This document shows, piece after piece, positions 27,904 through 61,334 of a stretch of 64,000 nucleotides of DNA. Source of the stretch: an uncultured Anaerolineales bacterium. Its GTDB lineage: Bacteria > Planctomycetota > Phycisphaerae > FEN-1346. The notes under the pieces were generated by a model. It was not told where the DNA came from. It saw only the letters and a program-made list of their open reading frames with translations, and did not search any database. The stretch covers positions 5,136 through 69,135 of the forward strand of contig CAZGKW010000007.1 in NCBI GenBank assembly GCA_964526295.1. Direction: 5' to 3'. Made by a program: the position numbers and the translations under genes. Within the stretch, counting starts at the first letter, position 1. Every line of letters begins with the position of its first letter.

Positions 27904-27906
27904 CGC

Positions 27907-30303: not shown

Positions 30304-30368
30304 CGCTCTATCTTACACGGGCGTCGGCCGGGGGAAAGGCCGCCGGGTCGTCGCGAAGCGTCCGCGCG

Positions 30369-32760: not shown

Positions 32761-32810
32761 CGACGGCGGGGGCGAGCGGCGTTACGTCGAGGCGTGAGGA
32801 AGGGCAGGGG

Positions 32811-40119: not shown

Positions 40120-40260
40120 TTGCTTCTTCGGTCTCCTCTGAGCGTGTTCAGGGGAGTCTCGTCAGTTTTTGGCGCGGCGGGTCACCGTGCCCGCCGCGTT
40201 CCGGTGGGCCAGGCGCGGCCGGCACGGAGACCGACCGCGCAGGACCATCCTGGACCCGCC

Positions 40261-42303
40261 TTAGAACGGCAGTTGGAACACGCTTTTCATCAGGAACGTC
40301 ACGCCGATGCTGAACGTTCCGACCAGCCCGACGCCGCACATGAACCCCGCCGCCACGACGGGGATATACTGCCGCCAATTGAGGCCCAGCCGCCGCTGGA
40401 AGTAATACCGGCCGAGCAGGGCCCCGATGAAGTTGGGGATGACCGCGTGGGGCATGGTCTGCCCCAGACCGCGGACGACGCCGTAGACGAGGAACGTCGG
40501 GGCCCCCAGCCGCGTCAGCAGCGTGAACATGAAGGTCCCCAGGACCAGCCCCGCCGCCAGGTAGTCCAGGTTGAACGCCCGCTCGAACAGGGAGTACCCG
40601 CCGAGGGTGGCGCTGTGCATGATGGCCTCGTTCTCGGCGTAGAGGTCCCACATTTTCTGGGCGAACGGGTACTGCGGCCCCGGCACCGGCGCCAGGCCCC
40701 AGATGAAGTTCGCGAACAGCAGGCTCGACAGGATGATGATCGGCGCGAGGATGAGGTCCGACTTCCAGATGCTCGTCACCTTCGTTCCCGTCAGCTCGGC
40801 CTGCCGGAACGACACGGTCTTGACGCCGTAGTTGTGGAGGGGGATGGGCAGGAACCAGACGGCCACCCCCTGGTAGCCCGACAGGATGAACGAGGCCTCC
40901 CGGACGAACGGAATGTTGACCACCTGGCCCGCGATGCCCTCCAGGCGGGCCGTGGCATAGCTGATGAACGGCGTGTAGAGGAAGCCGTAGAAGACCAGGA
41001 CCAAGAGCACGCCCGTGTGGACCCGGCCGTCGGTCAGATAGAGGAGGTAACACGATACGAGGATGTATAGGGCCGTCGAGATGATGTAGGTGATGATGAT
41101 GAAGCGGGTGCGGATGTCGCCCCGGCCGGGCGGCGGGGCGAAGCCCTCCTCCTGGAGCGTGTCCCGCTCCCGGTGCCACCGCCGCAGCTTCACGATGGCC
41201 TGGCAGATGGCCCCGATGCCCACCAGCGCGATCGCCAGCATCAGCCCGATCTGGAAGCTGAAGTAGAAGTCCACCTGGTTCTTGAACAGTGTCGAGATGG
41301 TGTTGTCGGCCCCGGCCTGCCACGCCTCCAGGACGTCCAGCCGATACAGGGCGGGGTTCGCGACCACCGTTACGAGCAGCCCGATGAAGCTGCCCACCAT
41401 CGCCCAGAACGGCAGGACCATGCCGGTGATGAGGTGTCCCAGGTCGAACGAGAGGCCCGTGGCGACGGCGGGCAGGTACTTGCCCGTCTGGGGGGTCCAG
41501 TCGACGAACGGGATGGGCAGCAGGACGATCGGCTTGTCGAGCAGGGCCCCCGTCACGGTCGGAATGCCGATATAGACGGCCCCGAAGACGATGCCGATAA
41601 TCGAGCCGATGGAGAAGACGCGGTATCGCCATCGGGTGGCGGGGCCGGAGGAGGTCTCGTCGGGCGCGCGGTTGGGGTTCTCCTCCTCCTGCTCCTCGCT
41701 GAGCGCCAGCACGCCCTGGGCCTGCAAGGGCGCCAGCGGGAACGGGAGCTTCTCCACGTCGCTTGCCAGGCGGAACAGGCCGTAGCCGAGGATCGTGTTG
41801 TTGAGGCGGCTCATGATCGTCGTGAAGACGATCAGGCCGATCGCCGGGAGCCACTCCCACGTGAAAATCGACCGGTGCGCCAGCACCTCCTGGCTCGGGA
41901 CGAACCAGAACGGGATGTGCTCGGCGATGCCGTGGGCCTCGGCCGCCGTCGACTGGGCGTAGAACTGCTTCCACAGGAGCGAGCCCTTGGGGATGACGGC
42001 GGCCGTGCCGGCCATCGCCGCCGCCGCCAGGTAGAACAGCGTGAAGATCTCGGCCCGTTTGAGGGTCTTGTTCGCCCGCCGGGCCACCTCGATGAACAGG
42101 ATCACCGTGACCCACTGGGCGGCCGGGCCGATCGCCTTGCCCGCCACCAGCGTCATGTAGAGCGCCCCGGGCACCATCACCAGGGCGACGAAGCAGACGC
42201 CGATGAACGACGACCATGTGAAGCCCTCCTCAAACGTGGAGGGGACCTCCAGGAGGCTTCGAAACTCCTGGACTTCCCGGTCGTCGGCGAGTTTTCTGGC
42301 CAT
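40261..42303 (-). CDS. 680-aa polytopic inner-membrane protein of unknown function
   Basis: About 14 predicted hydrophobic helices throughout, G/C-rich third positions, and no recognisable motif. Confidence 0.7.
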   Translation of the reverse strand: MARKLADDREVQEFRSLLEVPSTFEEGFTWSSFIGVCFVALVMVPGALYMTLVAGKAIGPAAQWVTVILFIEVARRANKTLKRAEIFTLFYLAAAAMAGTAAVIPKGSLLWKQFYAQSTAAEAHGIAEHIPFWFVPSQEVLAHRSIFTWEWLPAIGLIVFTTIMSRLNNTILGYGLFRLASDVEKLPFPLAPLQAQGVLALSEEQEEENPNRAPDETSSGPATRWRYRVFSIGSIIGIVFGAVYIGIPTVTGALLDKPIVLLPIPFVDWTPQTGKYLPAVATGLSFDLGHLITGMVLPFWAMVGSFIGLLVTVVANPALYRLDVLEAWQAGADNTISTLFKNQVDFYFSFQIGLMLAIALVGIGAICQAIVKLRRWHRERDTLQEEGFAPPPGRGDIRTRFIIITYIISTALYILVSCYLLYLTDGRVHTGVLLVLVFYGFLYTPFISYATARLEGIAGQVVNIPFVREASFILSGYQGVAVWFLPIPLHNYGVKTVSFRQAELTGTKVTSIWKSDLILAPIIILSSLLFANFIWGLAPVPGPQYPFAQKMWDLYAENEAIMHSATLGGYSLFERAFNLDYLAAGLVLGTFMFTLLTRLGAPTFLVYGVVRGLGQTMPHAVIPNFIGALLGRYYFQRRLGLNWRQYIPVVAAGFMCGVGLVGTFSIGVTFLMKSVFQLPF

Positions 42304-42364: not shown

Positions 42365-45300
42365 CTACTCCGCCGTCGCCTCCGCTTCCTCCTCGCCCAA
42401 GGCCGTCAGCGTCGCCATCCGGTACGACTCGACCGTCTCGGGCGTCAGCGTCCGCCACAGGAGGAACTGCCGCCTCAGGTCGTGCAGAAAGACCCGGTTG
42501 GCCCGTTTCCAGTCGGCGGCGGCGCCGCTGAGGCGGTCGGCCTCGACGGTCACCTCCTCGACGCCGGGGACCTCCGACGGGGCGCTCGAGAGCTCGAAGT
42601 GCTGCGTCACCCCCAGGTCGAACGGCGCCAGGGCCAGCTCGGCCTCCAGCGCCAGGCCGTCCGTCTCGCCGACCCGCCGGATGCGGACGTCGCGCGAGGC
42701 GAACACCCCGAGCCCGGCATCGTCGTGCTGGCGAAAATGCTCCGCCAGGTAGCCCACCACCCCGGTAATGTCGTAGGCCGAGACGGTGAAGGGGAACGTC
42801 ATCCGGAGGGTGTCGCCCTCGGGTGGGGGCATCTTCCAGGACCGCTTCAGGCCCGGGTTCGCACTCCGGGAGGCCCGGTAGGCGGGGAAGATCGCCGACG
42901 CCAGGACCGTCGCCATCACGATGCCGATGGCGAACAGGGCGTTGGTGGAGGAGAAGTTGATGTTCGTGGGCTGGATGAGGCCCCGCTCGGCCAGCATCAG
43001 CGTCCCCTGGGCCACGCCCTGGGCGAGGACTTGGCCGGCCATCCCGCCGACGACCGCGTAGACGGCCGCCTCGGCGAAAAACAGGAACCCCACGTCCAGC
43101 GGCGCCAGGCCCAGGGCGCTGAACGAGTAGATCTCCCGCTCCCGGTCGGCGATGCTCCCGAGCATCGTCCCGAAGATGATCAGCCCGCCCAGCAGGACCG
43201 GCACCGCCAGGGCCGCCGCCCCCGTCACCTCCGTCAGCTCCGAGAAGACCAGCCGTACGACGCCTTCCGTGCCGTTGGCCCAGACGGGCAGGGCGGTCTG
43301 CTCGGCCGCCGCCGCGCCGGCCTCCACCCGGTCGGTCTCCTCGGGTGGGTAGACCGTGACGACGTGCAGCCGTCCACCGAGCCGGCGGACGAGGTCGGCC
43401 GAGGCGATGGCCACCTGGTTCGGGCTCAACCGGACGAACTCGCGGGCCAGGACGTCCTCGGACGCCCCCTCTTTCTCCTCCGCCTTGACGGCCGAGGAGG
43501 GGTCGCGGAAGTCGACCGGCAGGGCGCTGCGGCCGTCCAGGTGGTTGAGCCGCTGGAGAAGGCGGTCGTCCAGGACGCCGGCGAACCGGCACCGCTCGCC
43601 CGCCACGAGGATCGGGTCCCCGGCATGGAGGTCCATCTGGTCGCGGAGGATCCGGGGCAGATAGACCCCCCCGCCGGCCAAGGCCGCGCACTTCTCCTCC
43701 AAGGTCTCGCCCTGGAGCAGCTCGGCCATCTGGGGCCACCGCCGCACCTCCTCCGGCGTCACGCCGATGACGCCGTCGACCCACAGGCTGGCCCCCGACG
43801 CCGGTCGGACCACGCCGAAAGCCGGGTCGCCTTCCAGCTTCGGGGCCAGCCACCACTGGCCGGTGACGAGCCCGCCGCCCGGGGCCCGGCGGGAGGCCGG
43901 GGCCGGGTCCTGGCCGGGCAGGTCCGCACCGGGGCGGGGGGCCGCCCCGCCCAGCGCCGCCTCGGGCGAGGCCGGGCCCTCCGAGCCGCCCAGCATCACC
44001 AGGGCGTCGCTGGAGAGGGCCTTGTAGTCGAGCTTCCGCAGGAAGAGGCCGGCGGCGTCGTCGCCGGGCGGCCGCTCGTAGACCTCCCGCACGCCCACCA
44101 GGTTCGCGAGCGAAGCGAAGCACATCACCGTGAAGGTCAGCATGACCACCGTGACGGCCGTCAGGACGGTCCGCAGCGGCCGACGCCGCATCGTCGAGAT
44201 GCCCATGTTGACGGCTGCGATCAGCGTCGAGAGCCGCGACTGCTGCACCCGGTGACGGGCGCTCGACTGGCCCTGCATTGCCCTCAGCTCGGTCTGGAAC
44301 TTGCGGGTCACGATGAAAATGACCACCGACGAGAGGAGGATGATGAGGAACGCCAGGAGAATGACGATCGGCGTGGCGGCGATCTTGAACCCCGGATGCG
44401 TCAGGAACAAGAGGACGAACGTCACCAGGAACAGGGCGGCGAACCCCACCAGCCGCGTGTAGATGCTCGTTGCGCAGACGATGAGACGTTCCATGACGAA
44501 GGCGAACGGGATGGCCAGCAGTAGCAGCAGGACAATCGCCCGGATCAGGTCGTTCATCACGTTCTTGAGCGGCAGGTAGACGTCGCGCGACAGGGCGGCG
44601 CTGCGGCCGAAGCGGGTCGTCCGCAGGGCCGTCGAATCCGCCCGGTGGGCCTCGGTCCTGATGCGCTGGGCCCGCCCGTGGAGCCGTTCCAGGTCGGCCG
44701 CGACGATGCCCCGCGTCCGGAGGATGCTCAGGCGGCCCTCGTTCAGCCGCCACAGGTCCTCGGCGCTCGTGGGGTCGGTCGGCGGCGGCGTCTGGAACGC
44801 CTCGAACGGGAACCCGTCGCCGGTTGCGCGTCGCGTCGGCTCGCCCAGGAACACCGGGCCCTTCGGATGGAAGACCTTGACCGTGCCGGGGAGACCCTCG
44901 AACATGTAGAAGAACGCGAAGTCGTCGCCGTGGCCGAGCAGGCGCCGCTGGATCCTGAACGGGGTGTCCGACCCGCCCGCCAGGACGTGGATTTCCTCGT
45001 CCGTGCCCCACTCGGCCATCAGGGGCCGGCCCACCACCTGGCCCTGGCATCGGAACAGGTTCAGGCGGACCCATTCGGCGCTCTTGCGGGTGTCCTCCTC
45101 GCGGTTCGTGATGGCGGTCGGCCGTCCCCGCGAGTCGAACATCGCCCCCACCACCTGGTACGTCGAGAAGAAGATCTTCTGGATGCCGACCAGTTCAAAG
45201 CGGCCGTCGGCGTTGGCGGCGGCGATGAACGTCGGGTCGAAGAAGGTGAACGAGTCGTCAAGGACGAGCGGGTTGACCCACTTGCGAGGTTCGCCGTTCT

Positions 45301-47512
45301 TCTTGGGCCAGACGGCGATCAGGGCGCCCGCGGCGGGCCGGTTCTCCTCCAGGCTTCCGGTCACCTGGAGACCAGCGAAGTTGCCCGTCGCGGTCTTCTT
45401 GGCATCGTCCCACTGGGAGAACCGCTTCAGCGAGAGGTCCTCGAACGTTCGCCGAAGCGACAGGGCCCGGAGGTCGGCCGCCCGCGCCAGGAGACGGGTC
45501 CCGGCCGCCGCGTGCCGGCGAAGCTCGCGCCACGCCAGCCGGTCCACTGTGTCGGCGGGGTGCCCGTCGCGGGGCCGGCGGTCGTGGCCCGTCATCAGCG
45601 ACACGTTGTAGATGCCGTGCACCCCGGCGACGCGCCCGTCGGAGACGAACCGGCCGGGGGCGTAGCGTCGGCTCTCGGTCGGCTCGCTGAGCGTTTTCGT
45701 GTCGAGGCTCGCGAGCCCGGTCGCGGCCGCATCGGTGGTCTCGGGGGCGCCGAACGACTCGGCCGCCTCGCGAAAGGCCGCCAGGACCTGGGCGTAGTGG
45801 CCGGCCGAGTCGGCGTTCGGGTTGGTGGCGATGTCGTGCAGGGCATCCCGCACGACCACGCCCCAGGTCGGCCCCTCGCCCGAGAGGTTGTAGCCGGTGT
45901 GCAGGACGATCGTCCGGTCCGCCAGCCGGGTCCGCAGCCGGCGGCCCTGCTCGTCGATTCGGACCCGCACGGCCAGCTCGTCGCGTCGGCGGGCGAAACC
46001 CGCGGCCGTCGCCTCGACCAGCTCCGCGTACAGCGCCGGATGGTCCCGGTGTACGAGGACGGTGCCCCCCAGGGCGGCCTCCGGGTCCGCCGCGCCGAAC
46101 AGCCAGCGGAAGGACCGGACCAGGTGGCTCTGTCGCCGCGTCCCGTGCAGGGCCCGGCGGACGGCGTCCCATCGACTCACCATCGCCCTGAGGTCATCGA
46201 CCTCTTGCATCTCAGGCGTCTCGCCCGCGGCCGCTTCCTCCTCGGCCCGGCGGCGAAGCTGCATGAGGCGGACGTTCAAGTCGGCCCGGAGATGGTCGGC
46301 CTGTCGGCTGAGCGCATCCTTGGCCGCGTCGACGTCCCCCGTCTCGACGTTCCACTGGCCCGGCGCCTGGCGGAGCAGCGCCAGGATGCCCTCGACGAAG
46401 GCCTTCTCCTGGCGATGCGCCTCGGCGAGCTTCTCGGCCTGTCCGCTCTCGAGGGTCAGGGCCGTGTAGAACGCCCGGGCCCCCGCGAAGGACCGGGCTT
46501 GGCCGTCCAGGAACGCCACCAGCACGTCCCGCCGGGGCCGGTTCTCCTTCAGCCAGGCCGTTGCTTCCAGCAGGGCCGCCACGTTGGCCGCTCCCCGGGC
46601 CCCCGGCGACAGGCGAGGCACTACGCCGAACGAATCGTAGTTGGCCGACAGGACGACCAGCTCCGGTCCGGGGCTGTCGAAAATGGGGTTGGTGCCCGGC
46701 AGGAAGGCGAACACGTTTCGCCCGGACGTCCGTTTCCACTCGACGTGGCTGACGACGGTCACCTCGGGGTGGTCCCGCCGAAGGTCGACGCCGGCCCGGC
46801 GGGCCTCCTCGGCCGGGGCGTAGAGGCGGACCAGGTTGGCCGGCACGTAGGCGTGCTTGCGGGCCAGGGGGGTGGCTCGATGATCGGCACCGGCGGCGGG
46901 GCCGGGCTGCGCCGCCGGACCGCCCAGGAAGATCACCGCCTTGGCCCCCATCCGGAACGCCCGCTCCCACTGGTCGTCGCAGTCGTACTCCAGTCCGACG
47001 ATGGCCCCTGCGCAGGGGCGGTCTCCGTACTCGGCCAGCGTGCCGCGGCCGGCGTAGAGGTACGGCCCCCTCAGGCCCTCGTCCGGCGTGACGGGCGGCA
47101 TGAGGATGTTCGGGCGGACGGGGAGCAGCTCGACCTTCGCCGCGCCGCCCGGGGCATCCGTGCCCAGGAGCAACTCGCACCGCGCGGGCTGGGTCTGCCA
47201 CAGCGGCACGTCGAGGATGAAGACGTCCTGGGCGGCCGTCAGCGGGGCCTCGGCCGGGGTCGTCTCGCCCGCCGGGGGGGGCACCGCTAGGCCCATAGCT
47301 GCGAGACGCCCCAGGACATAGTCGGCGGCCCGCCGTCCTTCGGACGTGCCCGCCAGACGGTGCGGGTCCCGCGTCAGGGCCTCGAGGTCGGCCCGGAAGG
47401 CCTCCTCCCCGGGCTCGCGGGCGGGGGCCCCGGCCGCGCAGTCGGGGCCCGCGGCGGCCGCGGCCAGCGCCGCCCACCCCGCCAGCGACAACGCGATGAC
47501 CCGAGCACCCAT
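42365..47512 (-). CDS. 1716-aa secreted/membrane fusion protein: PA-domain-containing M28-like (apparently inactive) peptidase domain + large extracytoplasmic region + 4-TM bundle + MacB-type FtsX permease
   Basis: The real start is ATG at 47512 (MGARVIALSLAGWAALAAAAAGPDCAAG, a signal peptide), and it overlaps the stop of the upstream ABC ATPase as ATGA. The upstream 159 codons of track ORF 42365..47989 are antisense of that ATPase. An M28-like block reads VVLSANYDSFG...GARGAANVAALLE...VAFLDGQARSFAGARAFY with the Zn ligands replaced. The C-terminus ...LLGGLIIFGTMLGSIADREREIYSF...IFPAYRASR is an FtsX domain. Confidence 0.75.
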   Translation of the reverse strand: MGARVIALSLAGWAALAAAAAGPDCAAGAPAREPGEEAFRADLEALTRDPHRLAGTSEGRRAADYVLGRLAAMGLAVPPPAGETTPAEAPLTAAQDVFILDVPLWQTQPARCELLLGTDAPGGAAKVELLPVRPNILMPPVTPDEGLRGPYLYAGRGTLAEYGDRPCAGAIVGLEYDCDDQWERAFRMGAKAVIFLGGPAAQPGPAAGADHRATPLARKHAYVPANLVRLYAPAEEARRAGVDLRRDHPEVTVVSHVEWKRTSGRNVFAFLPGTNPIFDSPGPELVVLSANYDSFGVVPRLSPGARGAANVAALLEATAWLKENRPRRDVLVAFLDGQARSFAGARAFYTALTLESGQAEKLAEAHRQEKAFVEGILALLRQAPGQWNVETGDVDAAKDALSRQADHLRADLNVRLMQLRRRAEEEAAAGETPEMQEVDDLRAMVSRWDAVRRALHGTRRQSHLVRSFRWLFGAADPEAALGGTVLVHRDHPALYAELVEATAAGFARRRDELAVRVRIDEQGRRLRTRLADRTIVLHTGYNLSGEGPTWGVVVRDALHDIATNPNADSAGHYAQVLAAFREAAESFGAPETTDAAATGLASLDTKTLSEPTESRRYAPGRFVSDGRVAGVHGIYNVSLMTGHDRRPRDGHPADTVDRLAWRELRRHAAAGTRLLARAADLRALSLRRTFEDLSLKRFSQWDDAKKTATGNFAGLQVTGSLEENRPAAGALIAVWPKKNGEPRKWVNPLVLDDSFTFFDPTFIAAANADGRFELVGIQKIFFSTYQVVGAMFDSRGRPTAITNREEDTRKSAEWVRLNLFRCQGQVVGRPLMAEWGTDEEIHVLAGGSDTPFRIQRRLLGHGDDFAFFYMFEGLPGTVKVFHPKGPVFLGEPTRRATGDGFPFEAFQTPPPTDPTSAEDLWRLNEGRLSILRTRGIVAADLERLHGRAQRIRTEAHRADSTALRTTRFGRSAALSRDVYLPLKNVMNDLIRAIVLLLLLAIPFAFVMERLIVCATSIYTRLVGFAALFLVTFVLLFLTHPGFKIAATPIVILLAFLIILLSSVVIFIVTRKFQTELRAMQGQSSARHRVQQSRLSTLIAAVNMGISTMRRRPLRTVLTAVTVVMLTFTVMCFASLANLVGVREVYERPPGDDAAGLFLRKLDYKALSSDALVMLGGSEGPASPEAALGGAAPRPGADLPGQDPAPASRRAPGGGLVTGQWWLAPKLEGDPAFGVVRPASGASLWVDGVIGVTPEEVRRWPQMAELLQGETLEEKCAALAGGGVYLPRILRDQMDLHAGDPILVAGERCRFAGVLDDRLLQRLNHLDGRSALPVDFRDPSSAVKAEEKEGASEDVLAREFVRLSPNQVAIASADLVRRLGGRLHVVTVYPPEETDRVEAGAAAAEQTALPVWANGTEGVVRLVFSELTEVTGAAALAVPVLLGGLIIFGTMLGSIADREREIYSFSALGLAPLDVGFLFFAEAAVYAVVGGMAGQVLAQGVAQGTLMLAERGLIQPTNINFSSTNALFAIGIVMATVLASAIFPAYRASRSANPGLKRSWKMPPPEGDTLRMTFPFTVSAYDITGVVGYLAEHFRQHDDAGLGVFASRDVRIRRVGETDGLALEAELALAPFDLGVTQHFELSSAPSEVPGVEEVTVEADRLSGAAADWKRANRVFLHDLRRQFLLWRTLTPETVESYRMATLTALGEEEAEATAE

Positions 47513-48375
47513 CACGCCTGCCCCCCGATCCGGCCCACCCGGACCTCGACGTCCTCGCGTCGGTCGACCCGCTCGATCTGGCCGTCGCGGATCCACATCA
47601 TCCGGTCGCAGACGTCGAGCAGGCGATGGTCGTGCGTCGCACAGACGACCGTCACGCCCTGGCTCTCGTTGAGGCGCTGGAGGACCTGGAGGATCTCGGC
47701 CCCGGTTGCCAGGTCCAGGTTGGCGGTCGGCTCGTCCGCCAGGAGGACCTTGGGCTGGTTGCACATGGCCCGGGCGATGGCGACCCGCTGCTGCTGGCCT
47801 CCCGACATCTCCTTCGGCCGATGGGTCCACCGGTCCGCCAGACCCACCAGGTCCAGCAGCTCCATCCCCCGCCGGCGGGCGGCCTCGGGCGCCACCCCGG
47901 CGAAGGCCATTGGCACCGTCACGTTCTCCAGGGCCGTCATGTACCGGATCAGGTTGTAGCCCTGAAAGATGTAGCCGATCTTGCGGCACCGGAGGAAGGC
48001 CAGCTCCTCGGCGCTGAGTTGGGCGACGTCGGTTTCGTCAATGAGGACCCGCCCCTCGGTGGGCGAGTCGAGCGCCCCGATCATGTTGAAGAACGTCGTC
48101 TTGCCCGAGCCCGAGGGGCCGAGGATGGCGATAAACTCGCCCCGGTGGATGACCGCGTTGACCCCGTTCAGGGCGTAGGTGGTCTTCTCGCCCATCTGGT
48201 AGCACTTGACGAGCCGGAGGGTCCGGATGATGACCGGCTCGTCGGTGGATTGCGGTGTCTCGGTCATCTCAGCTTGCGTGAATCCTTGCGCGTCCACAGG
48301 CCCCGGCGAGCTTCCGCTCGCCGCTCGAAAACTTTCGACTCGGGTTCCCGCCTTCGCCAAGGCGACGGCGGGCAA
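47512..48375 (-). CDS. ABC transporter ATP-binding protein (MacB/FtsE/LolD-type)
   Basis: Walker A GPSGSGKTT, signature MSGGQQQRVAIARAM, Walker B LLADEPTANLD, H-loop ATHD. Confidence 0.9.
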   Translation of the reverse strand: MPAVALAKAGTRVESFRAASGSSPGPVDAQGFTQAEMTETPQSTDEPVIIRTLRLVKCYQMGEKTTYALNGVNAVIHRGEFIAILGPSGSGKTTFFNMIGALDSPTEGRVLIDETDVAQLSAEELAFLRCRKIGYIFQGYNLIRYMTALENVTVPMAFAGVAPEAARRRGMELLDLVGLADRWTHRPKEMSGGQQQRVAIARAMCNQPKVLLADEPTANLDLATGAEILQVLQRLNESQGVTVVCATHDHRLLDVCDRMMWIRDGQIERVDRREDVEVRVGRIGGQA

Positions 48376-48420: not shown

Positions 48421-49887
48421 TCATTCGATTCGCATCGCTTCCATCGGCGCGAGGCGGGCCGCCGCCCACGCCGGGCCCACCGCTGCCAGCACCGCCAGCA
48501 CCAGGCCCGAGGCGAGGCACGCCGCCGCCCCCACGAACGTCTCCCGCACCGGCAGCACCATCAGGCTGCCGAAGGCGACCGCGCCTCGCAGCATCGCCAG
48601 GGCGTAGCCCAGGATGATCCCCGCGATGGCCCCCACCAGGCCTTGCGTCCCCGACTCGAATAGAAACTGGAGCCGGATGAACCCGTCCATCGCCCCCAGG
48701 CACTTCATCGTGGCGATCTCGGCGAACCGCTCCGCCACCGACATGAACATGGCGTTCGCCACGCCCACCGTGCACACCAGGAACGACAGGCCGATCAGCC
48801 ACTTGACCCAACCGGGGACGGTCAGCAGACCGCCGCCCTCGACCGGGGGCGGCCCTTCGCCCACGGCCGCCGAGAGCCGCGACTGCTCCCGCAGCGACTC
48901 GGCCAGCGCCAGCAGCCGTTGCGGCTCCACACGCGGCCCGGCCGCGTACCGGTTGATCAGCGTCCCCAGAAACGCCGCCTTCTTCCGCGAGTCCAGCCAC
49001 GCGAGCACCCGGCCGTGGGTCACCTCGGTGGCCTTGAGGTCCAGCTCCTTGGCCAGGGCCCGGGCCACGTCGGGCAGCTTGACGGCTTCGGTCAGGCGGA
49101 TCTGCTCCTCGGCCTGCCGCGCCAGGGCCGCCAGCTTCGGCAGGGCCTCCTGGGGCAACTCGAACCCCGCGGCCGCCAGCGTCTCGGCGAAGTCCGGCGG
49201 CGGGTAGGCGAACAGCTCCCGCGGCGACCGGCCCGGATACGCCGCTTCGATACGCCGGATGGCCGCCTCCTGGCCCCGGCGGATCCGCTCGGCCATCGCC
49301 AGGGCCTCGGGGCGGTCTCCCGTCAGCACCGCCCGGAACCGCTCGACGCTACCGAGCGGCGGCTCCAGCCGGAGCTCCTTCAGGTGGGCGAGGAACGCCT
49401 CGAACCGCTGCGCTTCGCTCAGGCGGCCCGCCGCCTCGTGCGGCTCAAGGTCCGCCACCAGGACCGTCCGCGTCGCCACCGGCAGGCCCTCCAGGTAACC
49501 GTAGAGCCGGGCCAGCGACCGGGCGGCCTCGCGGGCCGAGGCGAACTCCGCCTCGGTCGCGCCGCTCCAGGTCCGGTACGCACCCACCCGCGGCCCGTCG
49601 GCCCCCGCCAGGCGCGAGAGGATCGCCGCCGCGTCGTCCGGCACCGTCAGGCGGGTCGTCCACTCGCCCAGGAGCCGGGCATCGCGGAGCTGCCGGTACG
49701 CCGCCAGACGCGTCCGGTTCTCGATCACGCTGTACCCGAGGACGTGGGCGAGGAACGCCACCGCCAGGGCCAGGATCGAGACCGTCACCATCGACCGGAA
49801 CATCCGGTACGACATCCCGGTCAGCGTCAGACCGAAGCACCGGGCCGGCCCGATGCGAACCTGGTTCTTGACCACCAGCGGCTTCAC
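48421..49887 (-). CDS. FtsX-like ABC permease (MacB-type, with ~350-aa extracytoplasmic helical domain)
   Basis: GTG at 49887 (VKPLVVKNQVRIGPARCFGLTLTGMSYRMFRSMVTVSILALAVAF is TM1) overlaps the PqqD-like gene stop. The C-terminal FtsX TM2-4 is ...LSFLVCTVGVANAMFMSVAERFAEIATMKCLGA...AARLAPMEAMR. The upstream low-complexity part of track ORF 48421..50163 is rejected. Confidence 0.75.
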   Translation of the reverse strand: MKPLVVKNQVRIGPARCFGLTLTGMSYRMFRSMVTVSILALAVAFLAHVLGYSVIENRTRLAAYRQLRDARLLGEWTTRLTVPDDAAAILSRLAGADGPRVGAYRTWSGATEAEFASAREAARSLARLYGYLEGLPVATRTVLVADLEPHEAAGRLSEAQRFEAFLAHLKELRLEPPLGSVERFRAVLTGDRPEALAMAERIRRGQEAAIRRIEAAYPGRSPRELFAYPPPDFAETLAAAGFELPQEALPKLAALARQAEEQIRLTEAVKLPDVARALAKELDLKATEVTHGRVLAWLDSRKKAAFLGTLINRYAAGPRVEPQRLLALAESLREQSRLSAAVGEGPPPVEGGGLLTVPGWVKWLIGLSFLVCTVGVANAMFMSVAERFAEIATMKCLGAMDGFIRLQFLFESGTQGLVGAIAGIILGYALAMLRGAVAFGSLMVLPVRETFVGAAACLASGLVLAVLAAVGPAWAAARLAPMEAMRIE

Positions 49888-50324
49888 GTCTCGGCCCCCT
49901 CGGCCGCCGGACCGGCCCCGTCGGTCGGCGTGCCGATCATCACGATCAGCCCCCGCCGGGTCAGGTCGCGGAGGAACTGCATGACGCTGATCCGGGCCTC
50001 CTGGAACGTCAGGTGGTGGGCCCGTGAAAAGCGCTCGATGATCTCTTCGGCGGTCCGCCGCCCGTCGCAGGCCTCCCACACCTCCCGGCCCAGCCGGTCG
50101 AGGCCCACGGCCCGCTCGCGGCTGAACGGCATCACCCACGACAGCGGCGGCCGCATGTACCACCGGCGGACGAGCGGCACGCGAAGGACGATCCCGCCTC
50201 CTCCCGGTCCCCGGCCCGACGGTTGCGGCTCGGCGCGGACCGACTCGTTCGGCACGGGGACGGCGTCGAGCAGGTCGGTCGGCCCCAGCGTCGTCTCGGT
50301 CTCCGGTTGCGTCTTCTTCTTCAT
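49884..50324 (-). CDS. PqqD-family / RiPP-recognition-element-like small protein
   Basis: ATG at 50324 overlaps the upstream stop as ATGA. The C-terminal ~85 aa read ...LDRLGREVWEACDGRRTAEEIIERFSRAHHLTFQEARISVMQFLRDLTRRGLI, matching the PqqD fold signature. It is hidden inside track ORF 49884..51245. Confidence 0.65.
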   Translation of the reverse strand: MKKKTQPETETTLGPTDLLDAVPVPNESVRAEPQPSGRGPGGGGIVLRVPLVRRWYMRPPLSWVMPFSRERAVGLDRLGREVWEACDGRRTAEEIIERFSRAHHLTFQEARISVMQFLRDLTRRGLIVMIGTPTDGAGPAAEGAET

Positions 50325-51205
50325 GTCAGCTCGCGCTCCGCCCCGTCCGGCGCCCCGTCGCAGCAGCGGACGGCGAAGGCCTCCGGCCGCACCAGGTCCT
50401 TCCGCGGGCCCCGCGTCGTCACCAGGAACACTGCGTGGGCCGACGGGCACAGCCACGCCCGGTCGAGCCGCTCCGGCGTCCGCCGCACGAACCGGGCGAC
50501 GGCGTTCGGGGCCTCGTTGCTGCGGCCGTCGCGGGCCTCGTGGGTCCCGTACGTCGTCTCGGACACCTGGCACCGGGCGGGGCCCGTCTGGTTCCTCAGG
50601 AACGCCGCCAGGTCCCCGCCGAACCAGGCGTCGACCGCCCCCAGCCGCCGCACGACCGCCTCCCGCCGCCGGTCCTTGCGGAACGTCATCGACGCATCGG
50701 CCGGCCGGGCCGACACCTCGGCCAGCGGCCACTCGGGCGGGACGCGGATGTCGAGGCCGAAGGCCCGCCACCGACGCGGCGGATCGGCCTCGTCGTCCAC
50801 CTCGAACCCCTCCAGGAGCCGCCGCTCCAGGCCCGTATCGACCGCCTCGGGCCACGAGACCACCATCTCGACCCACCGCTTCAAGGCCGCCAGGTACCGC
50901 CCGGCCCGGGTGATGGTGCCGGCCTCGCCCCGGCGGCGGAAGCCCCGCCAGCCGGCCGTCCGCTCCAGGCGAGTCAGCTTGCAGTCGGGGTCCTCGGCCA
51001 GCTCGTCGGCCCGGTAGTCCGAGAGCGTCCGCTTGACGTCCGGCTCGGCCTCGGCCCGGATCCACGAGACCTGGAGCCGTTGCCGACGTCGGTCCGCCAG
51101 GGCCAGGCTGCCCCGCTCGGCGCCCAGGGCGTGGCGGACGATCTCCCACGCCTCCGGCACCGCCAGGTGCATGCCCAGCCACACGATGTCGCGGGTCGTC
51201 TGCAT
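50321..51205 (-). CDS. hypothetical 294-aa protein (no TM, family not recognised)
   Basis: Track ORF 50321..51205(-). G/C-rich third positions. Its stop is coupled to the PqqD-like ATG. Confidence 0.6.
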   Translation of the reverse strand: MQTTRDIVWLGMHLAVPEAWEIVRHALGAERGSLALADRRRQRLQVSWIRAEAEPDVKRTLSDYRADELAEDPDCKLTRLERTAGWRGFRRRGEAGTITRAGRYLAALKRWVEMVVSWPEAVDTGLERRLLEGFEVDDEADPPRRWRAFGLDIRVPPEWPLAEVSARPADASMTFRKDRRREAVVRRLGAVDAWFGGDLAAFLRNQTGPARCQVSETTYGTHEARDGRSNEAPNAVARFVRRTPERLDRAWLCPSAHAVFLVTTRGPRKDLVRPEAFAVRCCDGAPDGAERELT

Positions 51206-51250
51206 CCGCTTGGCTCGCCAAGGCAGGCCCGCCTGCCCCCCTCACCCCAC

Positions 51251-51273
51251 CCCTCTCCCACCAGGGGAGAGGG
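51251..51273. repeat. GC-rich palindromic intergenic element (copy 2 of CCCTCTCC...GGAGAGGG + AGGTSATGG)
   Basis: CCCTCTCCCACCAGGGGAGAGGG followed by AGGTCATGG. It lies in the 87-nt gap between the 946-aa and 294-aa genes. Confidence 0.5.
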
Positions 51274-51291
51274 AGGTCATGGCATGCCGGC

Positions 51292-54132
51292 TCAGCCCGG
51301 CAACAGGCTGTAGGTCACCGGGGCCTTCCCCGTCAGGGCGAAATAGACGGCCCCGACGATGGCCCATCCGATGGCCGCCAGCAGCTCGCCGGCGATCACG
51401 CCGACCATAAGCGGCTTGATCAACTGGTACCCCTTGGCGCCGCCGAGCTTGACGACGGCGGTCTTGATGGCCCAGCCGAGGAAGAACGAGGCGGCGAGCT
51501 CGAACCCGGGCTTCGTGCCCCAGACGAGAAACATTACCGGATGGATAAACCACCAACTGATACGCAGCCGCGCGATCGAGACCCCCACCACCAGCGCCAG
51601 GCCGAGGCCCACCCAGCCCATGACTTCCGGGTCGAACCGGGCCTCCGCCAGGGCCCCCAGCCCCGACGTGGCCGTCGCCCGGGCCAGGTCGCCTCGGGCC
51701 CGGAGCTCCACGATGTGCTTCTCGATGCTGTTGAAGACCTCCCGCGGCAGCGACACCGTCGCCCACTTGTCCCGGTGGTTGACCCCGAGGTTGTACTGGA
51801 ACCACAACGTTACCAGCAGGGCCGCGACGAAGGCGGCCACCAGCATCACAAGCAGCCAGGGGGCCAGGCGGCGCGGCCGGGCGCCGGCGCCGCTGTGGCC
51901 CATCCGCAGGCCGTTCGCCAGATACGGCATGATGGCTTCCCGCGGGTCGCCCACCAGGATCACGCTGGCCAGGGCCAGCAGGACGTACGCCTGGGGACTG
52001 ATGGCCGAATGCCCCAGCACCGCCACCAGGACGGTCGCCGGCAGCCAGTAAGCCTGGAGGAAGAACGCCCCGGTCTCGACGTTGATCCGCGTGATGATCA
52101 ACAGCGTCAGCATCACCAGCGCGATTGCCAGGATGCTGAGCGGCCAGTCGAGCCCCGCCCGACACAGAAGCAGCACCGCCAGGACCAGGCACACGATCAG
52201 GCCGCGCGCCGCCCACGTGGCATAGGGGGGCGTGTCGCGCCGCCGACTGAGGCCGAAGGCGCTGCCCAGCACGTTCAGGTAATACCGCCGTCCGATGTAA
52301 AGCAGGACGCCCGCCATCCCAAGGTAGGCCCCGAAGACCATCAGGTTCACGTTCTTGGCGTCGAAGTACGGGCTGACCATCGCCGTGCCGCGGGCCACCA
52401 GGATCGTCCCGAACGCCACGTACGCGACGCCCGAGATGCCCAGGCTGAACGAGACCCCCTTGTTCAGGAAGAAGGCGAACGCCACGACGCTGAGGTAGAT
52501 CGTCGGGTTCCAAACGCCCTGCCAGTCGTAGACCTTCTTGGCCGTGGGGAAGAGCTTCTTCAGGGGCGTAAAGTCGACCTGCGTCGGGACCTTGATGAAG
52601 AACGTTTCGTTGTCCCACTTGTTCAGGCCGTTCACGAGGTGCAGCAGGACCAGCGCCAAGAGGCCGTACCAGAAGAGCCGCGACAGAAGGACCGCCGGGG
52701 TCCGGCTTTCCGCGGCGGGGCGCGTCACCTCCTCGACGAACCGGGCGATGGGGTAGGCCAGCAGCTCCCGCTGCGACCACTGGGGGTGGACGATCAGCGT
52801 CAGGCAAAGCGCCGCCGTGCCCACCAGCAGCGCCAGGCCACCCCACAGCTTCAGCGTCGGCCACCATGTCCTCCAGGGCAGGTCCGCCAGGCCGAGGCCG
52901 AATCGCTCCCCGGTGCCGCCCCGCCACCCCTGCTGGAGCGTCTCGACGGCGAAAGGGTCGATCGTCCCGCCGGCCAGCAGGGGGCCCTCGTCCGGGTCGT
53001 ACGGCGCGAGCAGCTCCGGCCAGGCCGCCTCCAACGCGATGCGGTTGATCTCGGCCTCCAGGCGGCCCACCTGGTTCGCCGTGCCGATCCGGTGGTCGAT
53101 CGAGTCGATGCGTTCCTGGAGGAGGCGGATGGGGTTGTCGTAGGCGGCAAGCCGCCCCGTGACGTCGCGAATGCGGGCCTCCAGCGGGGCCATGCGGGCA
53201 TCCAGGGCCTCGATCTCCCGGCGGAGGGCCTCGATCCGGCTCGTCAGGTCGGAGGGGGCCTCGGCCGCCGGGGCCGGTTCGCCGCCGGGGCCCTCGGCCT
53301 TGCGGAGGCGGGCCTGGAGGTCGGCAAGCTGCCGGGCCAAGGCCTCGCGCTGGAGGCGCAGGGGCTCGCGCTCGGCGATGAGGGCCTCCCGCTCGGGCTC
53401 CAGGCGGACCCGGAGGCTCGTCCGCCGGGCTTCCAACTCCCGGAGCCGATCGCCGAGATCCTCGCGCTGCACGGCCAGCTCGGCCCGCTCCTCGAGGAGC
53501 GCCTCGGCGACCTCCGGCAGTCGGTCCCCCAGGGCGGTATAGAACGCCCGGTCCTCGATGACGTTCTCGTTGATGGCCCGCAGGAGGGCGGATTCCTCGG
53601 CGTCCGAGAGGCGGGCGTCGTCGGGCCGCTCGCCCGCGATCCGTCGGGCCCCCTCGGGCAGAAGGGTCCAGACCAGCCGGTCGGTTTCGTCCTCCGCCGC
53701 CTCGGCGGCGGCCAGCCGCTCGACCAGCGCTTCCCAGTCGCGGACGTGGCCCCGGGCGAGGTGAGGAGAGCCGCCCGGCACGTACGACATGATCTGGGCG
53801 TCCTGCCACCCGGTCCGGTTCCGGATGAGCTGGCTGGGCATGGCGAGGTTCGTGGTGAACGTCCGGAAGAACCCCGAGCCGGGCCATCCGCAGGCCGCCA
53901 GGCCGATCGCCGTGATCACGACCAGCTCGGACGACTTCAGCCGCCACCTCGTTCCGACGGCGCCGAGCGTCGGGTTCACCGCCAGCAGCAGGACCACCAG
54001 GACGCCGAAGACCGCGATGGGAAGGAAGTTCCCGATCAGTTGGGTCTGGTTGATGACGGCGTCGTTGAAGTAGGTGACGGCCGAGACGAGGAGGCCGAGC
54101 AGGAGGCCCAGGATGACCGCGCGGAGCGTCAT
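51292..54132 (-). CDS. 946-aa polytopic membrane protein with ~350-aa central coiled-coil
   Basis: ATG at 54132 after GGGAGG gives MTLRAVILGLLLGLLVSAV.... It has ~5 N-terminal TMs, then a long heptad-rich region (...LRELEARRTSLRVRLEPEREALIAEREPLRLQREALARQLADLQARLRK...), then ~12 further TMs. The track ORF is extended to 54333. Confidence 0.7.
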   Translation of the reverse strand: MTLRAVILGLLLGLLVSAVTYFNDAVINQTQLIGNFLPIAVFGVLVVLLLAVNPTLGAVGTRWRLKSSELVVITAIGLAACGWPGSGFFRTFTTNLAMPSQLIRNRTGWQDAQIMSYVPGGSPHLARGHVRDWEALVERLAAAEAAEDETDRLVWTLLPEGARRIAGERPDDARLSDAEESALLRAINENVIEDRAFYTALGDRLPEVAEALLEERAELAVQREDLGDRLRELEARRTSLRVRLEPEREALIAEREPLRLQREALARQLADLQARLRKAEGPGGEPAPAAEAPSDLTSRIEALRREIEALDARMAPLEARIRDVTGRLAAYDNPIRLLQERIDSIDHRIGTANQVGRLEAEINRIALEAAWPELLAPYDPDEGPLLAGGTIDPFAVETLQQGWRGGTGERFGLGLADLPWRTWWPTLKLWGGLALLVGTAALCLTLIVHPQWSQRELLAYPIARFVEEVTRPAAESRTPAVLLSRLFWYGLLALVLLHLVNGLNKWDNETFFIKVPTQVDFTPLKKLFPTAKKVYDWQGVWNPTIYLSVVAFAFFLNKGVSFSLGISGVAYVAFGTILVARGTAMVSPYFDAKNVNLMVFGAYLGMAGVLLYIGRRYYLNVLGSAFGLSRRRDTPPYATWAARGLIVCLVLAVLLLCRAGLDWPLSILAIALVMLTLLIITRINVETGAFFLQAYWLPATVLVAVLGHSAISPQAYVLLALASVILVGDPREAIMPYLANGLRMGHSGAGARPRRLAPWLLVMLVAAFVAALLVTLWFQYNLGVNHRDKWATVSLPREVFNSIEKHIVELRARGDLARATATSGLGALAEARFDPEVMGWVGLGLALVVGVSIARLRISWWFIHPVMFLVWGTKPGFELAASFFLGWAIKTAVVKLGGAKGYQLIKPLMVGVIAGELLAAIGWAIVGAVYFALTGKAPVTYSLLPG

Positions 54133-54329: not shown

Positions 54330-54722
54330 TCACGTGAACCGATCAGGCGAGAGGGGCGCCGGGTCGAGGAGCGGCCGCTCTCCGACCAGGAGCTGCGCGA
54401 CGAGCCGGCCGGTCGCCGGCGCCTGGCAGATGCCCTTCATGGCGTGCCCCGTCGCGACCAGGAGGTCCTCGCACCGGCCGGTCCGGCCGACGGCCGGCAG
54501 GCCGTCCGGCAGGCACGGCCTGAGGCCCCGCCAGATCTCGACCTTCCGCTCGTCCGGACCTTCGACGGGCGGCCTGGCCGGCTCGCCGGCGTCGCACGCG
54601 TGGTAGGTCGACACGGCCCGCCGCACGGCCGCCACGCGGCGGCGGTCGACCGACTCGTCCAGGCCCGCCAGCTCCAGCGTCCCGGCGAACCGCAAGGCCC
54701 CGCCGAGGGGCGTGACGGCCAC
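54330..54722 (-). pseudogene. C-terminal remnant of FAD-dependent (DAO/ThiO/DadA-type) oxidoreductase lacking its N-terminal two thirds
   Basis: ...LLVATGHAMKGICQAPATGRLVAQLLVGERP...APLSPDRF is the conserved C-terminal FAD-closing region of DAO-family enzymes. No GxGxxG-containing N-terminus exists upstream in any frame. Confidence 0.5.
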
Positions 54723-55150: not shown

Positions 55151-55468
55151 TTTCGATTTGCCTCCGGGCGTTTTCTATGCTATATAAAGGGCGCTCGGCC
55201 TTACGGGTCCCCGCCCGCGGCGACCTCTGCCGCCGCCGGCCCTCTCCAACCGGACAAGCCAGATTCGCGGGAATTCCATGCTTGGCCGTCGAGAGCGTCC
55301 GCCACCGCCATCGCCTTTGTTTCGTCCACTGTATCACCCTTTCCACTGACGGCAAGACCCCATCCACGGGGCAACTCGATTCTAGGGGACCATGATCTAG
55401 GGGGCCAAGGAAATTCTGGTGAGGCTTGCGGGATGGGTTTGACAGAAGGAATGAAGATCAGGCGGGGC

Positions 55469-55813
55469 CTAGTTACTGCAGATTTCGGCCACGTTCTCGA
55501 TAAACTTCTCGGGGCTTATATCGGTGCTAATGAAGTCTCGGACAAGGGGGCTATATTGCTGATCTAGGTGCCCCTCGCGGGGCCTGCGGTGCATACATTC
55601 ATAGATCCTATTCAATGTCGAATCCCAAACCTCCCCGTAAGCGTCAATCTCTCCTTTAAGCCGTTCCTTTTCTGCTTCTGTTTCGGCATTTGTGTATTGA
55701 TTGACGAGCGCCTTGTATCGTCCCAGCCTATCGGCCAGCTCGCCCAACGTACACCCATCTGCGTTATCGAGATACCACTTTCTGGCGTTGAATTGGCGAT
55801 TGCCCTTGCCCAT
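55469..55813 (-). CDS. hypothetical 114-aa soluble protein (island gene)
   Basis: Track ORF. No TM and no recognised motif. Low-GC codon usage matches the island. Confidence 0.5.
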   Translation of the reverse strand: MGKGNRQFNARKWYLDNADGCTLGELADRLGRYKALVNQYTNAETEAEKERLKGEIDAYGEVWDSTLNRIYECMHRRPREGHLDQQYSPLVRDFISTDISPEKFIENVAEICSN

Positions 55814-55948
55814 TTGCTCCTCCCCTTCCTCTGCGCCTACGGGTGTGATCGGTTCACTTGCTAGCTCATTCTACAGACTCCCTCACTCAGATTAGACGGC
55901 GCGGTCGGCGTTTTTCCTTGGCCCATCCCGATTCGCGCGGTACTGGCG

Positions 55949-56257
55949 TCATCGTTTCCGAAGTGACGCCAGCCCAAAGCCGACGACAGTTGGGATTGAA
56001 CCCACGACAATAATTACGAGTATGCTATCGATGGTATTTGCTAGCGCGAAGAATAGGAGCGCCGAGAGAATCAGCCCCCCTAGGACGGCAATGGCACCCC
56101 ATCCCGTTGTTGCTTCGGTCTTCTCTCCTGAGATCGGATGCCCACAGTGGGGGCATTGGCAAGCAGATGAACTAACTTGACTGGAGCAAACAGGGCATCT
56201 TATCAGTCCCATTGCAGCCACCTCTTCAGGATCCAAAGATTGTGGCCCGCAACTCAA
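55949..56257 (-). CDS. zinc-ribbon membrane protein (island gene)
   Basis: CPVC...CPHC zinc ribbon, then two TM helices (AIAVLGGLILSALLFFALA / ILVIIVVGSIPTVVGFGLA). The start may be the internal MGLIRCPVC. Confidence 0.55.
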   Translation of the reverse strand: MSCGPQSLDPEEVAAMGLIRCPVCSSQVSSSACQCPHCGHPISGEKTEATTGWGAIAVLGGLILSALLFFALANTIDSILVIIVVGSIPTVVGFGLASLRKR

Positions 56258-56286
56258 GCAGACGGTCGAGACTTAGAGTTGCACGC

Positions 56287-57090
56287 TCAGAGGAACGGGA
56301 CCAACCCGAGGAGGAACGGGATCAGCCCGAGAATGAAGACGCCGACTATGAGCCAAAGTGAACCAACGAAGCCAAGAATTAGTCCGGCCGTGGCTAATCC
56401 CTTCGGTTCGCTGAACATCCCGCAAAAGCTGAGCAGAAGGCCAATGGGTGCAAGGACGCCGCAGGAAAAGAATCCCAGGAGCGAAAAGACGAAACCCGCG
56501 ACCCCCAAAACGTTGCTTCGTGGAGCCTCTATGACAACCACTTGAGACTGGCTTTGCCTTGAAGTTCGGCTGACTTGGCGATAAGGCGCACCCCTGTTGC
56601 TTGGTTGTATATTCGCATTCGTGTGTACATGTGCCGAGGATGGTACAGGAAGCTTCTGTTCGTAAGGTTGAAGGACTTCGCCCTCTATCGCCTGTGTACG
56701 TCCTGCGGTTTCTGTCTTTGCCTTAGCGTCTAGATAAGCCTCAGACTCGCGACGTTTTTGCTCCTGTTCTCTCTTATGTTCTGCTGCGGCTTTGACCTTG
56801 CGCTGTTTTGCTGCTTTTCGTTTCTGTCGATATTCCTTCATTCGCTGTTGCATCTCGGGCCACAGAAGCTGAAACCCAGCGGCTTGGACGATGTTCTGAC
56901 ACTTTGAGCACTGGATATCGTCGCGTCGGTGCTCGTAAGAAACCGTGATCCCGTCGCCACAAACAGGGCACTTAAACCGGACTGGGTGTTTTGCAACCAT
57001 GTCGAATCGCTCTACCTTGACAATCGGAACGGAGCAAATAAGAACTTCATCACTGAGAACGCACGCTTCCCCCCTTCTTCTTCGATTCAA
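56287..57090 (-). CDS. zinc-ribbon membrane protein with Lys/Arg/Glu-rich linker (island gene)
   Basis: CPVCGDG...CSKCQN zinc ribbon, a highly charged KRK-rich linker, and a C-terminal multi-TM segment. The TTG start at 57090 abuts the PEP-CTERM gene stop; an alternative ATG is at 57000. Confidence 0.55.
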   Translation of the reverse strand: MNRRRRGEACVLSDEVLICSVPIVKVERFDMVAKHPVRFKCPVCGDGITVSYEHRRDDIQCSKCQNIVQAAGFQLLWPEMQQRMKEYRQKRKAAKQRKVKAAAEHKREQEQKRRESEAYLDAKAKTETAGRTQAIEGEVLQPYEQKLPVPSSAHVHTNANIQPSNRGAPYRQVSRTSRQSQSQVVVIEAPRSNVLGVAGFVFSLLGFFSCGVLAPIGLLLSFCGMFSEPKGLATAGLILGFVGSLWLIVGVFILGLIPFLLGLVPFL

Positions 57091-57774: not shown

Positions 57775-57888
57775 TCCGCTTCCCCCACTTTTACATTGTC
57801 ATAAACATTCGGCGAACTGGGCAATGTACCTCAAGAACCCGGTTGCGTCAAATAGAAAATGGCGCGCTACTTAGTTCGAGTTGTGCAC

Positions 57889-61319: not shown

Positions 61320-61334
61320 ACCGGGTTAGGCGCA

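Follow-up and report, generated by a model that had tools for sequence, protein, structure and literature searches.

What does a PqqD-like domain do in an ABC-transporter cluster that holds no peptide maturase? RRE/PqqD domains, the recognition elements (RREs) of pathways for peptides that are made ribosomally and modified after translation (RiPPs), are a class-independent handle for RiPP genome mining. In the 64,000-nucleotide stretch of DNA analysed here (contig CAZGKW010000007.1, positions 5,136 to 69,135; called the window below, with positions counted from its first letter), a gene on the minus strand encodes a 146-residue PqqD-like protein between genes of a transporter cluster. The original prediction had offered two explanations for it, a peptide- or segment-binding adaptor of the transporter and a small precursor open reading frame (ORF) that had been missed. 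The reading that we favour, and to which we give about an even chance, is that this protein and the 294-residue protein encoded beside it would form a cytoplasmic, two-part and non-catalytic adaptor that binds a peptide or a protein segment and serves a type VII ABC/oligopeptide transporter (OPT) system, not a RiPP pathway.

The PqqD-like protein and its 294-residue partner

The question turns on two overlapping genes.

49884-50324, minus strand: PqqD/RRE-like protein of 146 residues (translation without internal stops; PF05402 match; AlphaFold2 (AF2) model; Foldseek)
50321-51205, minus strand: partner of 294 residues with a tandem PsbP/Mog1/DcrB-like fold, predicted to be cytoplasmic (AF2 model and Foldseek; no family match)

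The ORF at 49884-50324 and its neighbours are also called, at identical lengths, in two independent metagenome assemblies. The start of the PqqD-like gene overlaps the stop of the upstream 294-residue gene (ctgacATGAag, an ATGA overlap) and its stop shares bases with the GTG with which the downstream FtsX gene begins (gagacGTGAagc, a GTGA overlap), so that the stop-start coupling predicted for both sides was indeed present. The Pfam model PF05402 (PqqD) matched the 146-residue protein with 43.5 bits, against a gathering cutoff of 23.4 (E=4.1e-11), over residues 65-127 (window 49944-50132) and profile positions 5-67 of 67. This match is far beyond chance and is not a chance motif. The scores of the curated subfamily models all fell below their cutoffs: 26.7 bits against 100 for TIGR04302 (GeoRSP PqqD), 23.9 against 46 for TIGR03859 (PqqD of pyrroloquinoline quinone (PQQ) biosynthesis), 24.2 against 100 for TIGR04248 (SynChlorMet), 23.7 against 80 for NF033536 (lasso-peptide B1 chaperone) and 14.5 against 35 for TIGR04353 (HPr-rel-A). 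PF05402 and TIGR03859 were the two profiles that the original prediction had named as a check, and the first alone was above its threshold. By these profile scores, the protein is a PqqD-family domain that falls outside every described functional subfamily. The PADLOC models of anti-phage defence matched neither the PqqD-like nor the 294-residue protein, and gave only generic LolE-TM and coiled-coil matches on their neighbours in the cluster.

The AF2 model of the 146-residue protein (predicted local distance difference test, pLDDT, 85.6) showed strands at residues 22-25, 30-33, 45-50 and 70-75, then helices at 77-85, 92-102 and 107-123. This is the three-stranded sheet followed by three helices of a winged helix-turn-helix, with an extra strand (22-25) and with the sheet interrupted by a 19-residue insert. 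In a Foldseek comparison with the PDB, the top matches were leader-bound TbiB1 (5v1u/5v1v), with a target-normalised template modelling score (TM-score) of 0.75-0.78, PqqD (5sxy), with 0.70, and a lasso B1 protein (6jx3), with 0.81. The next matches were RRE-like domains within the MibB/MadB dehydratases, TglHI, the GdmN/NovN carbamoyltransferases and protein methyltransferases (Rv2067c, PKMT), and all matches with a probability of at least 0.9 were RREs or RRE-like domains inside enzymes. A sequence profile compared with solved structures found a lasso PqqD chaperone, TbiB1 and PqqD as its sole relatives. The prediction of a PqqD-type protein was thus upheld by both family and fold.

Alignments of the subfamily (A2/A3) showed the signatures LLDAVPxxN near the N-terminus and WEACDG in helix 1, a conserved 19-residue insert, RRWYMRPPxSWxLPF, at residues 51-69, where it separates the last two strands, and FHEAR, nearly invariant, at the opening of helix 3, the helix that lines the peptide groove in RREs. 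Since a transmembrane scan found no hydrophobic segment or signal peptide in the 146-residue or the 294-residue protein, both are predicted to be cytoplasmic.

No Pfam or NCBIfam family, including PsbP, DUF1795 and DcrB, matched the 294-residue protein at E<=0.1. Its AF2 model (pLDDT 86.7; predicted TM-score, pTM, 0.75) consisted of two similar alpha-beta sandwich domains, and the Foldseek matches in the PDB were PsbP, PsbP-like NDH subunits, Mog1, Apa, LpqN, DcrB, the type VI secretion system (T6SS) chaperone EagT6/SciW, Tsi3 and TplEi. The probability was 1.00, with E from 3e-4 to 1e-2, for PsbP, Mog1, Apa and BT_1490, and the highest target-normalised TM-score was that of 2vu4 (0.62). Each match spanned about half of the model, except for the tandem TplEi (~296 residues), which spanned both halves. 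The proteins of this fold that were matched are binding, chaperone or immunity proteins and not enzymes, and we know of no enzyme with a PsbP/Mog1/DcrB/Eag/TplEi-like fold.

The 294-residue family has a conserved DRRRQRLQLSW motif and invariant polar residues (R24, H25, D38, R39, Q42, R43, R110, E113 and R186). A Cys triad (WxCP...RCC; alignment A1) was mostly all present or all absent, across loci and fusions, and was absent in many members; this pattern is suggestive of a metal or disulfide site that is optional. The conserved Cys86 of the PqqD-like protein did not covary strictly with the triad.

The 294-residue gene was located directly upstream of the PqqD-like gene in every PqqD-bearing locus compared by tblastn synteny. 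A search of 1.84 billion representatives (50% identity) with a profile of the subfamily alignment yielded 2228 proteins at E<=1e-3, 806 at E<=1e-10 and 62 at E<=1e-30. Long proteins (244-507 residues) made up 23 of the 150 best subfamily representatives, and in all 23 a PsbP-like tandem was located N-terminal to the PqqD domain (hidden Markov model E-values from 1e-124 to 3e-7). Because this fusion is recurrent and divergent, it provides strong Rosetta-stone evidence that the 294-residue and PqqD-like proteins act as one unit. The primary partner of the PqqD-like protein is its 294-residue neighbour and not the transporter as such. The original prediction had not noted this partner; its idea of an adaptor for the transporter fits the conserved synteny and the conserved gene overlaps.

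The transporter cluster and its conservation

The conserved order of eight genes, all on the minus strand, is DUF6785 permease, 294-residue protein, PqqD-like protein, FtsX permease, ABC ATPase, 1715-residue M28-like/FtsX protein, OPT permease and ABC ATPase. The genes on either side of the pair were as follows.

51292-54132, minus strand: DUF6785+DUF6784 polytopic membrane protein of 946 residues (PF20581 255.8 bits, PF20580 60.8 bits; transmembrane scan; synteny)
48421-49887, minus strand: FtsX/MacB-type permease of 488 residues (PF02687 55.9 bits; transmembrane scan; synteny)
47512-48267, minus strand: ABC ATPase 1, LolD/MacB/FtsE-like (PF00005 118 bits; TIGR02211 220.9 bits, below its cutoff)
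42365-47512, minus strand: envelope protein of 1715 residues with an N-terminal signal/anchor, an M28-like domain and FtsX-type transmembrane modules (PF04389 26.8 bits, partial; PF02687 31.4 bits; transmembrane scan)
40261-42303, minus strand: OPT-family (oligopeptide transporter) permease of 680 residues from the first in-frame ATG (PF03169 40 bits, cutoff 25.8)
39355-40119, minus strand: ABC ATPase 2 of 254 residues, the last gene of the conserved cluster (PF00005 110 bits; synteny)

We compared the contigs that carry homologues of the PqqD-like and 294-residue proteins with all eight window proteins by tblastn. The arrangement recurred in about 15 independent loci under three phylum-level labels, from Phycisphaerae/Planctomycetota, Polyangiaceae and one metagenome-assembled genome (MAG) labelled Fibrobacterota, and the closest homologues carried Phycisphaerae/Planctomycetota names, so that the window probably derives from a Phycisphaerae genome. 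The full order, as far as each contig reaches, was found in the loci L001, L003, L006, L009, L010, L013, L015, L017, L018 and L023, of which L017 is on the 2.96-Mb contig CAWCXG010000001.1. The cluster was partial, without the DUF6785 gene, in L005, L016 and L022, and partial versions with the same core were found in two Polyangiaceae MAGs (L007 and L014) and in the Fibrobacterota-labelled MAG (L012). In another locus, L020, the gene of an ABC2-like ATPase is followed by one for a fusion protein. Identity to the window proteins across loci was 40-66% for the PqqD-like protein, 31-48% for the 294-residue protein, 36-64% for the FtsX permease, 68-87% for ABC ATPase 1 and 57-77% for the OPT permease.

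The cluster is a self-contained unit, because its flanking genes (PA14/CHB_HEX proteins, spermine synthase, GH10, RecG, porin-like proteins, UvrB) are different in each of the loci. The overlaps of 4-11 nucleotides from the 294-residue gene to the PqqD-like gene and from the latter to the FtsX gene were kept between loci, and this conservation suggests that the three genes are translationally coupled.

A type VII ABC system is recognised by an FtsX C-terminal permease domain together with a LolD/MacB/FtsE-like ATPase, and both were found in the genes next to the pair, while all NCBIfam equivalogs for specific type VII ABC systems were below cutoff for the ABC and FtsX proteins of the cluster. 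The FtsX permease has four transmembrane segments in all, and its first segment (TM1, residues ~33-51) is separated from the second (TM2) by a loop of about 300 residues. This loop (residues ~52-353) had no Pfam match and looks helix-rich, in which case it would differ from the periplasmic domain of MacB, which is of the alpha/beta Porter/Sabre type. The OPT permease has a conserved N-terminal tail, DREVxEFRxLxEVPSTFEEGFTW. The ORF of ABC ATPase 1 is open to a TTG at 48375, with gene calls beginning at Met37, and that of the DUF6785 protein reaches back to a GTG at 54333, with gene calls beginning at Met68 (946 residues). The latter protein contains a variable SMC-like coiled-coil insert (approximately residues 190-360), which the homologues of L006, L007, L008, L014, L015, L017 and L023 lack or have in shortened form (split tblastn; 675-821 residues).

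The 1715-residue protein matched the MacB-like permease 5xu1_M of the PDB. The motifs of its M28-like domain (residues ~255-365) were compared with the canonical M28 motifs: GAxDNASG was replaced by GAR[GSA]AAN and EE by G/N-Q/E-A, and the first His varied, in the window protein and in 12 of 12 homologues. On these substitutions, the domain is probably a pseudo-peptidase.

G+C-rich inverted repeats were seen in the gap between the OPT and ABC ATPase 2 genes (40120-40260) and in that between the DUF6785 and 294-residue genes (51206-51291); for the latter, folding was no better than that of shuffled sequences (z=-1.46), and it is probably not meaningful. Directly upstream of the cluster, at 54330-54722 on the minus strand, only the C-terminal 130 residues of a DAO-type FAD oxidoreductase are encoded (PF01266 positions 259-353), and the same truncated gene was present in an independent assembly (L024). 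It adjoins a stretch of low G+C content at 55200-58000 (~55%, against ~70% for the window) that encodes zinc-ribbon and transmembrane proteins, and the oxidoreductase gene was probably cut by an insertion of foreign DNA. A Mutator-family transposase (60285-61325, minus strand; PF00872, with a DDE_5 match) a few kilobases past this stretch is consistent with a zone of mobile-DNA insertion.

The search for a maturase or a precursor

A Pfam/NCBIfam sweep over essentially all sizeable genes of the window turned up no RiPP maturase, whether of the YcaO, SPASM, lanthipeptide, lasso or any other type. Radical-SAM proteins were limited in the window to two glycyl radical enzyme (GRE) activases, each beside a PFL-like glycyl radical enzyme.

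26989-27906, minus strand: GRE activase (TIGR02494 331 bits)
35111-36025, plus strand: GRE activase (TIGR02494 297 bits)

The nearer of the two is 13.9 kb from the PqqD-like gene, in agreement with the original prediction that the only radical-SAM genes would be GRE activases more than 13 kb away. The two GRE/activase pairs are within 9 kb of each other (26989-30312, minus strand, and 32754-36025, plus strand), among genes for a ROK kinase, a Gfo/Idh/MocA dehydrogenase, an aldo-keto reductase and a 3-keto-disaccharide hydrolase, and this region may be an anaerobic catabolic island for sugar derivatives. PQQ biosynthesis genes were absent from the window, where the "PQQ_2" matches were BamB-like beta-propellers, and the cluster contained no transglutaminase-like or asparagine-synthetase-like (lasso B2/C) gene.

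The same search among the Pfam-annotated genes of nine loci (L001, L003, L005-L008 and L021-L023; flanks up to 10 kb) found no RiPP enzyme. The single radical-SAM protein of L021 (PF04055+DUF3641), 4 kb off and on the other strand, is one that we take to be ArsS-like. The absence of a maturase, which had been claimed for the operon, thus extends to the window and to these nine loci. The PqqD-like protein is neither fused nor adjacent to a maturase, the context by which a functional RiPP recognition element is identified.

The proposal of a missed precursor ORF was not supported by the comparison of loci. Gaps inside the cluster were at most ~240 bp and varied between loci, the upstream regions had nothing in common beyond noise except between near-identical loci, and the small ORFs that were occasionally called were not conserved in or beside the cluster.

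A proposed adaptor, its rivals and their meaning

In the mechanism that we propose, the 294-residue tandem PsbP/Mog1-like scaffold would be the first half of a soluble module and the PqqD-like RRE the second, the two being made from overlapping and probably translationally coupled genes or, in many relatives, as one polypeptide. In most genomes the module is hard-wired into a conserved envelope transporter cluster, which has two FtsX/MacB-type (type VII) ABC systems and one permease each of the OPT and DUF6785 families. In the usual manner of RREs, a short linear peptide segment would be held in the beta3/alpha3 groove of the domain by beta-strand addition, and the PsbP-like scaffold would dock the complex onto a membrane component, so that the bound segment is coupled to the ABC machinery. 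Candidates for this segment are a peptide cargo or signal in the cytosol and the disordered cytoplasmic tail of a cluster subunit. The conserved OPT oligopeptide permease fits this peptide theme.

Several observations weigh against such an adaptor. Phycisphaera mikurensis NBRC 102666 (complete genome AP012338.1; L021, 2002383-2022805) encodes a 315-residue homologue of the partner (E=9e-47; 8994-9941 of the locus) next to a 140-residue PqqD-like protein (10001-10423), and there was no transporter gene within 10 kb of the two. Locus L008 has the DUF6785 and the PsbP-like 294-residue proteins without PqqD or FtsX. Because of these two cases, the pair is often but not necessarily linked to the transporter, and the genomic contexts considered are those of about 20 subfamily representatives out of at least 806. 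The insert at residues 51-69 could fill the canonical peptide groove of the PqqD-like domain or alter its shape, and the M28-like domain, which looks catalytically dead, adds nothing to a story of peptide processing.

Three other explanations were weighed against the adaptor, and a part of the probability was given to none of the four. The protein could be a classical RiPP leader-peptide chaperone, with its maturase and precursor elsewhere in the genome and the adjacent ABC system as the exporter of the mature peptide, since its fold and its nearest solved relatives are all those of RiPP RREs and ABC exporters are common in RiPP clusters. The 2025 RRE-Finder update, moreover, placed only ~60% of RREs near a known RiPP protein and left ~40% without one (PMC12710340), which makes split clusters or unknown partners conceivable. 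We nevertheless consider this explanation improbable: in about 15 independent loci the same eight genes, with differing flanks, were never accompanied by a maturase or by a small ORF that is conserved, the partner in the recurrent fusions has the fold of non-catalytic binding proteins and not that of an enzyme, and the scores were far under the curated cutoffs of TIGR04302, NF033536 and TIGR03859. It also seems quite unlikely that the 294-residue protein is itself a new RRE-dependent peptide-modifying enzyme, in a new RiPP-like class with dedicated export and with a precursor that is unrecognised or elsewhere. Every significant structural neighbour of it was a protein of binding, chaperone or immunity function, and the high-probability matches included no enzyme; no precursor candidate was conserved in or beside the cluster, and many members lack the Cys triad; these points stand against the invariant polar residues, the optional triad and the observation that fusion of an RRE to a partner domain, here recurrent, usually marks the enzyme served (PMC12710340).

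Least probable, in our judgement, is a winged-helix domain that binds DNA as a transcription regulator of the operon, or that is a structural or assembly subunit without a peptide ligand. The RRE fold is a winged helix-turn-helix, the 146-residue protein is arginine-rich, and the weak Foldseek matches (E>1) include some DNA-binding domains, whereas no DNA binder was found among the matches with a probability of at least 0.9. A gene in mid-operon that overlaps both of its neighbours, and whose product often carries a fused PsbP-like scaffold, would be atypical for a repressor, and no operator-like upstream element was conserved between divergent loci. A more far-reaching version of the adaptor, which we put forward only tentatively, would make the RRE the cytoplasmic receptor of substrates or signals for a type VII ABC mechanotransduction machine, in which the PsbP-like/RRE adaptor recognises a leader-like segment to feed or gate the MacB/FtsX-OPT-DUF6785 envelope complex; or else the PsbP-like tandem would be an unrecognised maturase of a new RiPP-like class. 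If the receptor version were true, recognition in the style of a leader peptide would have been put to use in transport or envelope signalling and not in enzymatic maturation.

The 146-residue protein resembles discrete RREs (PqqD and lasso B1 proteins such as TbiB1), its best structural and sequence-profile matches, in belonging to PF05402, in its fold of a beta-sheet and three helices and in being small, soluble and stand-alone. It differs from them in its lack of a nearby maturase or precursor, in scoring below every curated PqqD subfamily cutoff, in the greater length of its subfamily (120-150 residues), with the LLDAVPxxN strand region, the insert before the last strand, WEACDG and FHEAR, and in having a PsbP-like binding fold, not an enzyme, as its obligate partner. 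The RRE-like domains of GdmN/NovN, Rv2067c and PKMT are a second point of comparison; because such domains of non-RiPP enzymes are among the matches with a probability of at least 0.9, use of the RRE fold outside leader-peptide recognition is suggested. Unlike these internal domains, the PqqD-like domain either stands alone or is fused to a scaffold that is not an enzyme, and its setting is a transporter cluster.

Like MacB, LolCDE and FtsEX-EnvC, the type VII ABC systems, the cluster has FtsX-domain permeases with a large TM1-TM2 loop and LolD/MacB/FtsE-like ATPases. The EnvC protein used by FtsEX has a catalytically dead LytM domain, and the 1715-residue protein offers a parallel, since its attached extracytoplasmic domain is enzyme-like and its catalytic motifs are degenerate. 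To our knowledge, an accessory pair of cytoplasmic RRE and PsbP-like proteins is absent from all characterised type VII ABC systems, and so are an OPT permease and a partner with DUF6785. The partner shares its fold, present twice in tandem, with the T6SS Eag chaperones, TplEi/Tsi3 and LpqN. Proteins of the PsbP/Mog1/DcrB fold act by binding proteins or segments and not by catalysis; unlike them, the 294-residue protein belongs to no sequence family and is predicted to be cytoplasmic. We know of no description of this fold coupled or fused to an RRE.

A search of the literature found no paper that mentions DUF6785/DUF6784, none that relevantly links PqqD with FtsX or MacB, and no description of the subfamily. 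The domain is familiar, and orphan RREs as such are unsurprising to specialists; what is new is the conserved, non-RiPP, transporter-associated context and the previously unannotated fusion partner. Long proteins without another Pfam domain make up 21% of the PF05402 proteins (PMC12710340), and the subfamily described here, fusions included, would belong to the unexplained fraction of RREs, of which it forms one large and coherent block with at least 806 representatives at 50% identity. If the pair is indeed a transporter adaptor, this subfamily would be a systematic false positive, to be filtered out by RiPP miners. Experiments are made feasible by Phycisphaera mikurensis, a type strain in culture whose genome is complete and carries the pair, although with divergent motifs (FAEAQ in place of FHEAR, and neither Cys86 nor the Cys triad). 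On the same condition, the RRE fold would gain a role in transport or envelope biology, and the pair would give a functional foothold on the DUF6785/DUF6784 and PsbP-like tandem families in Planctomycetota and Myxococcota.

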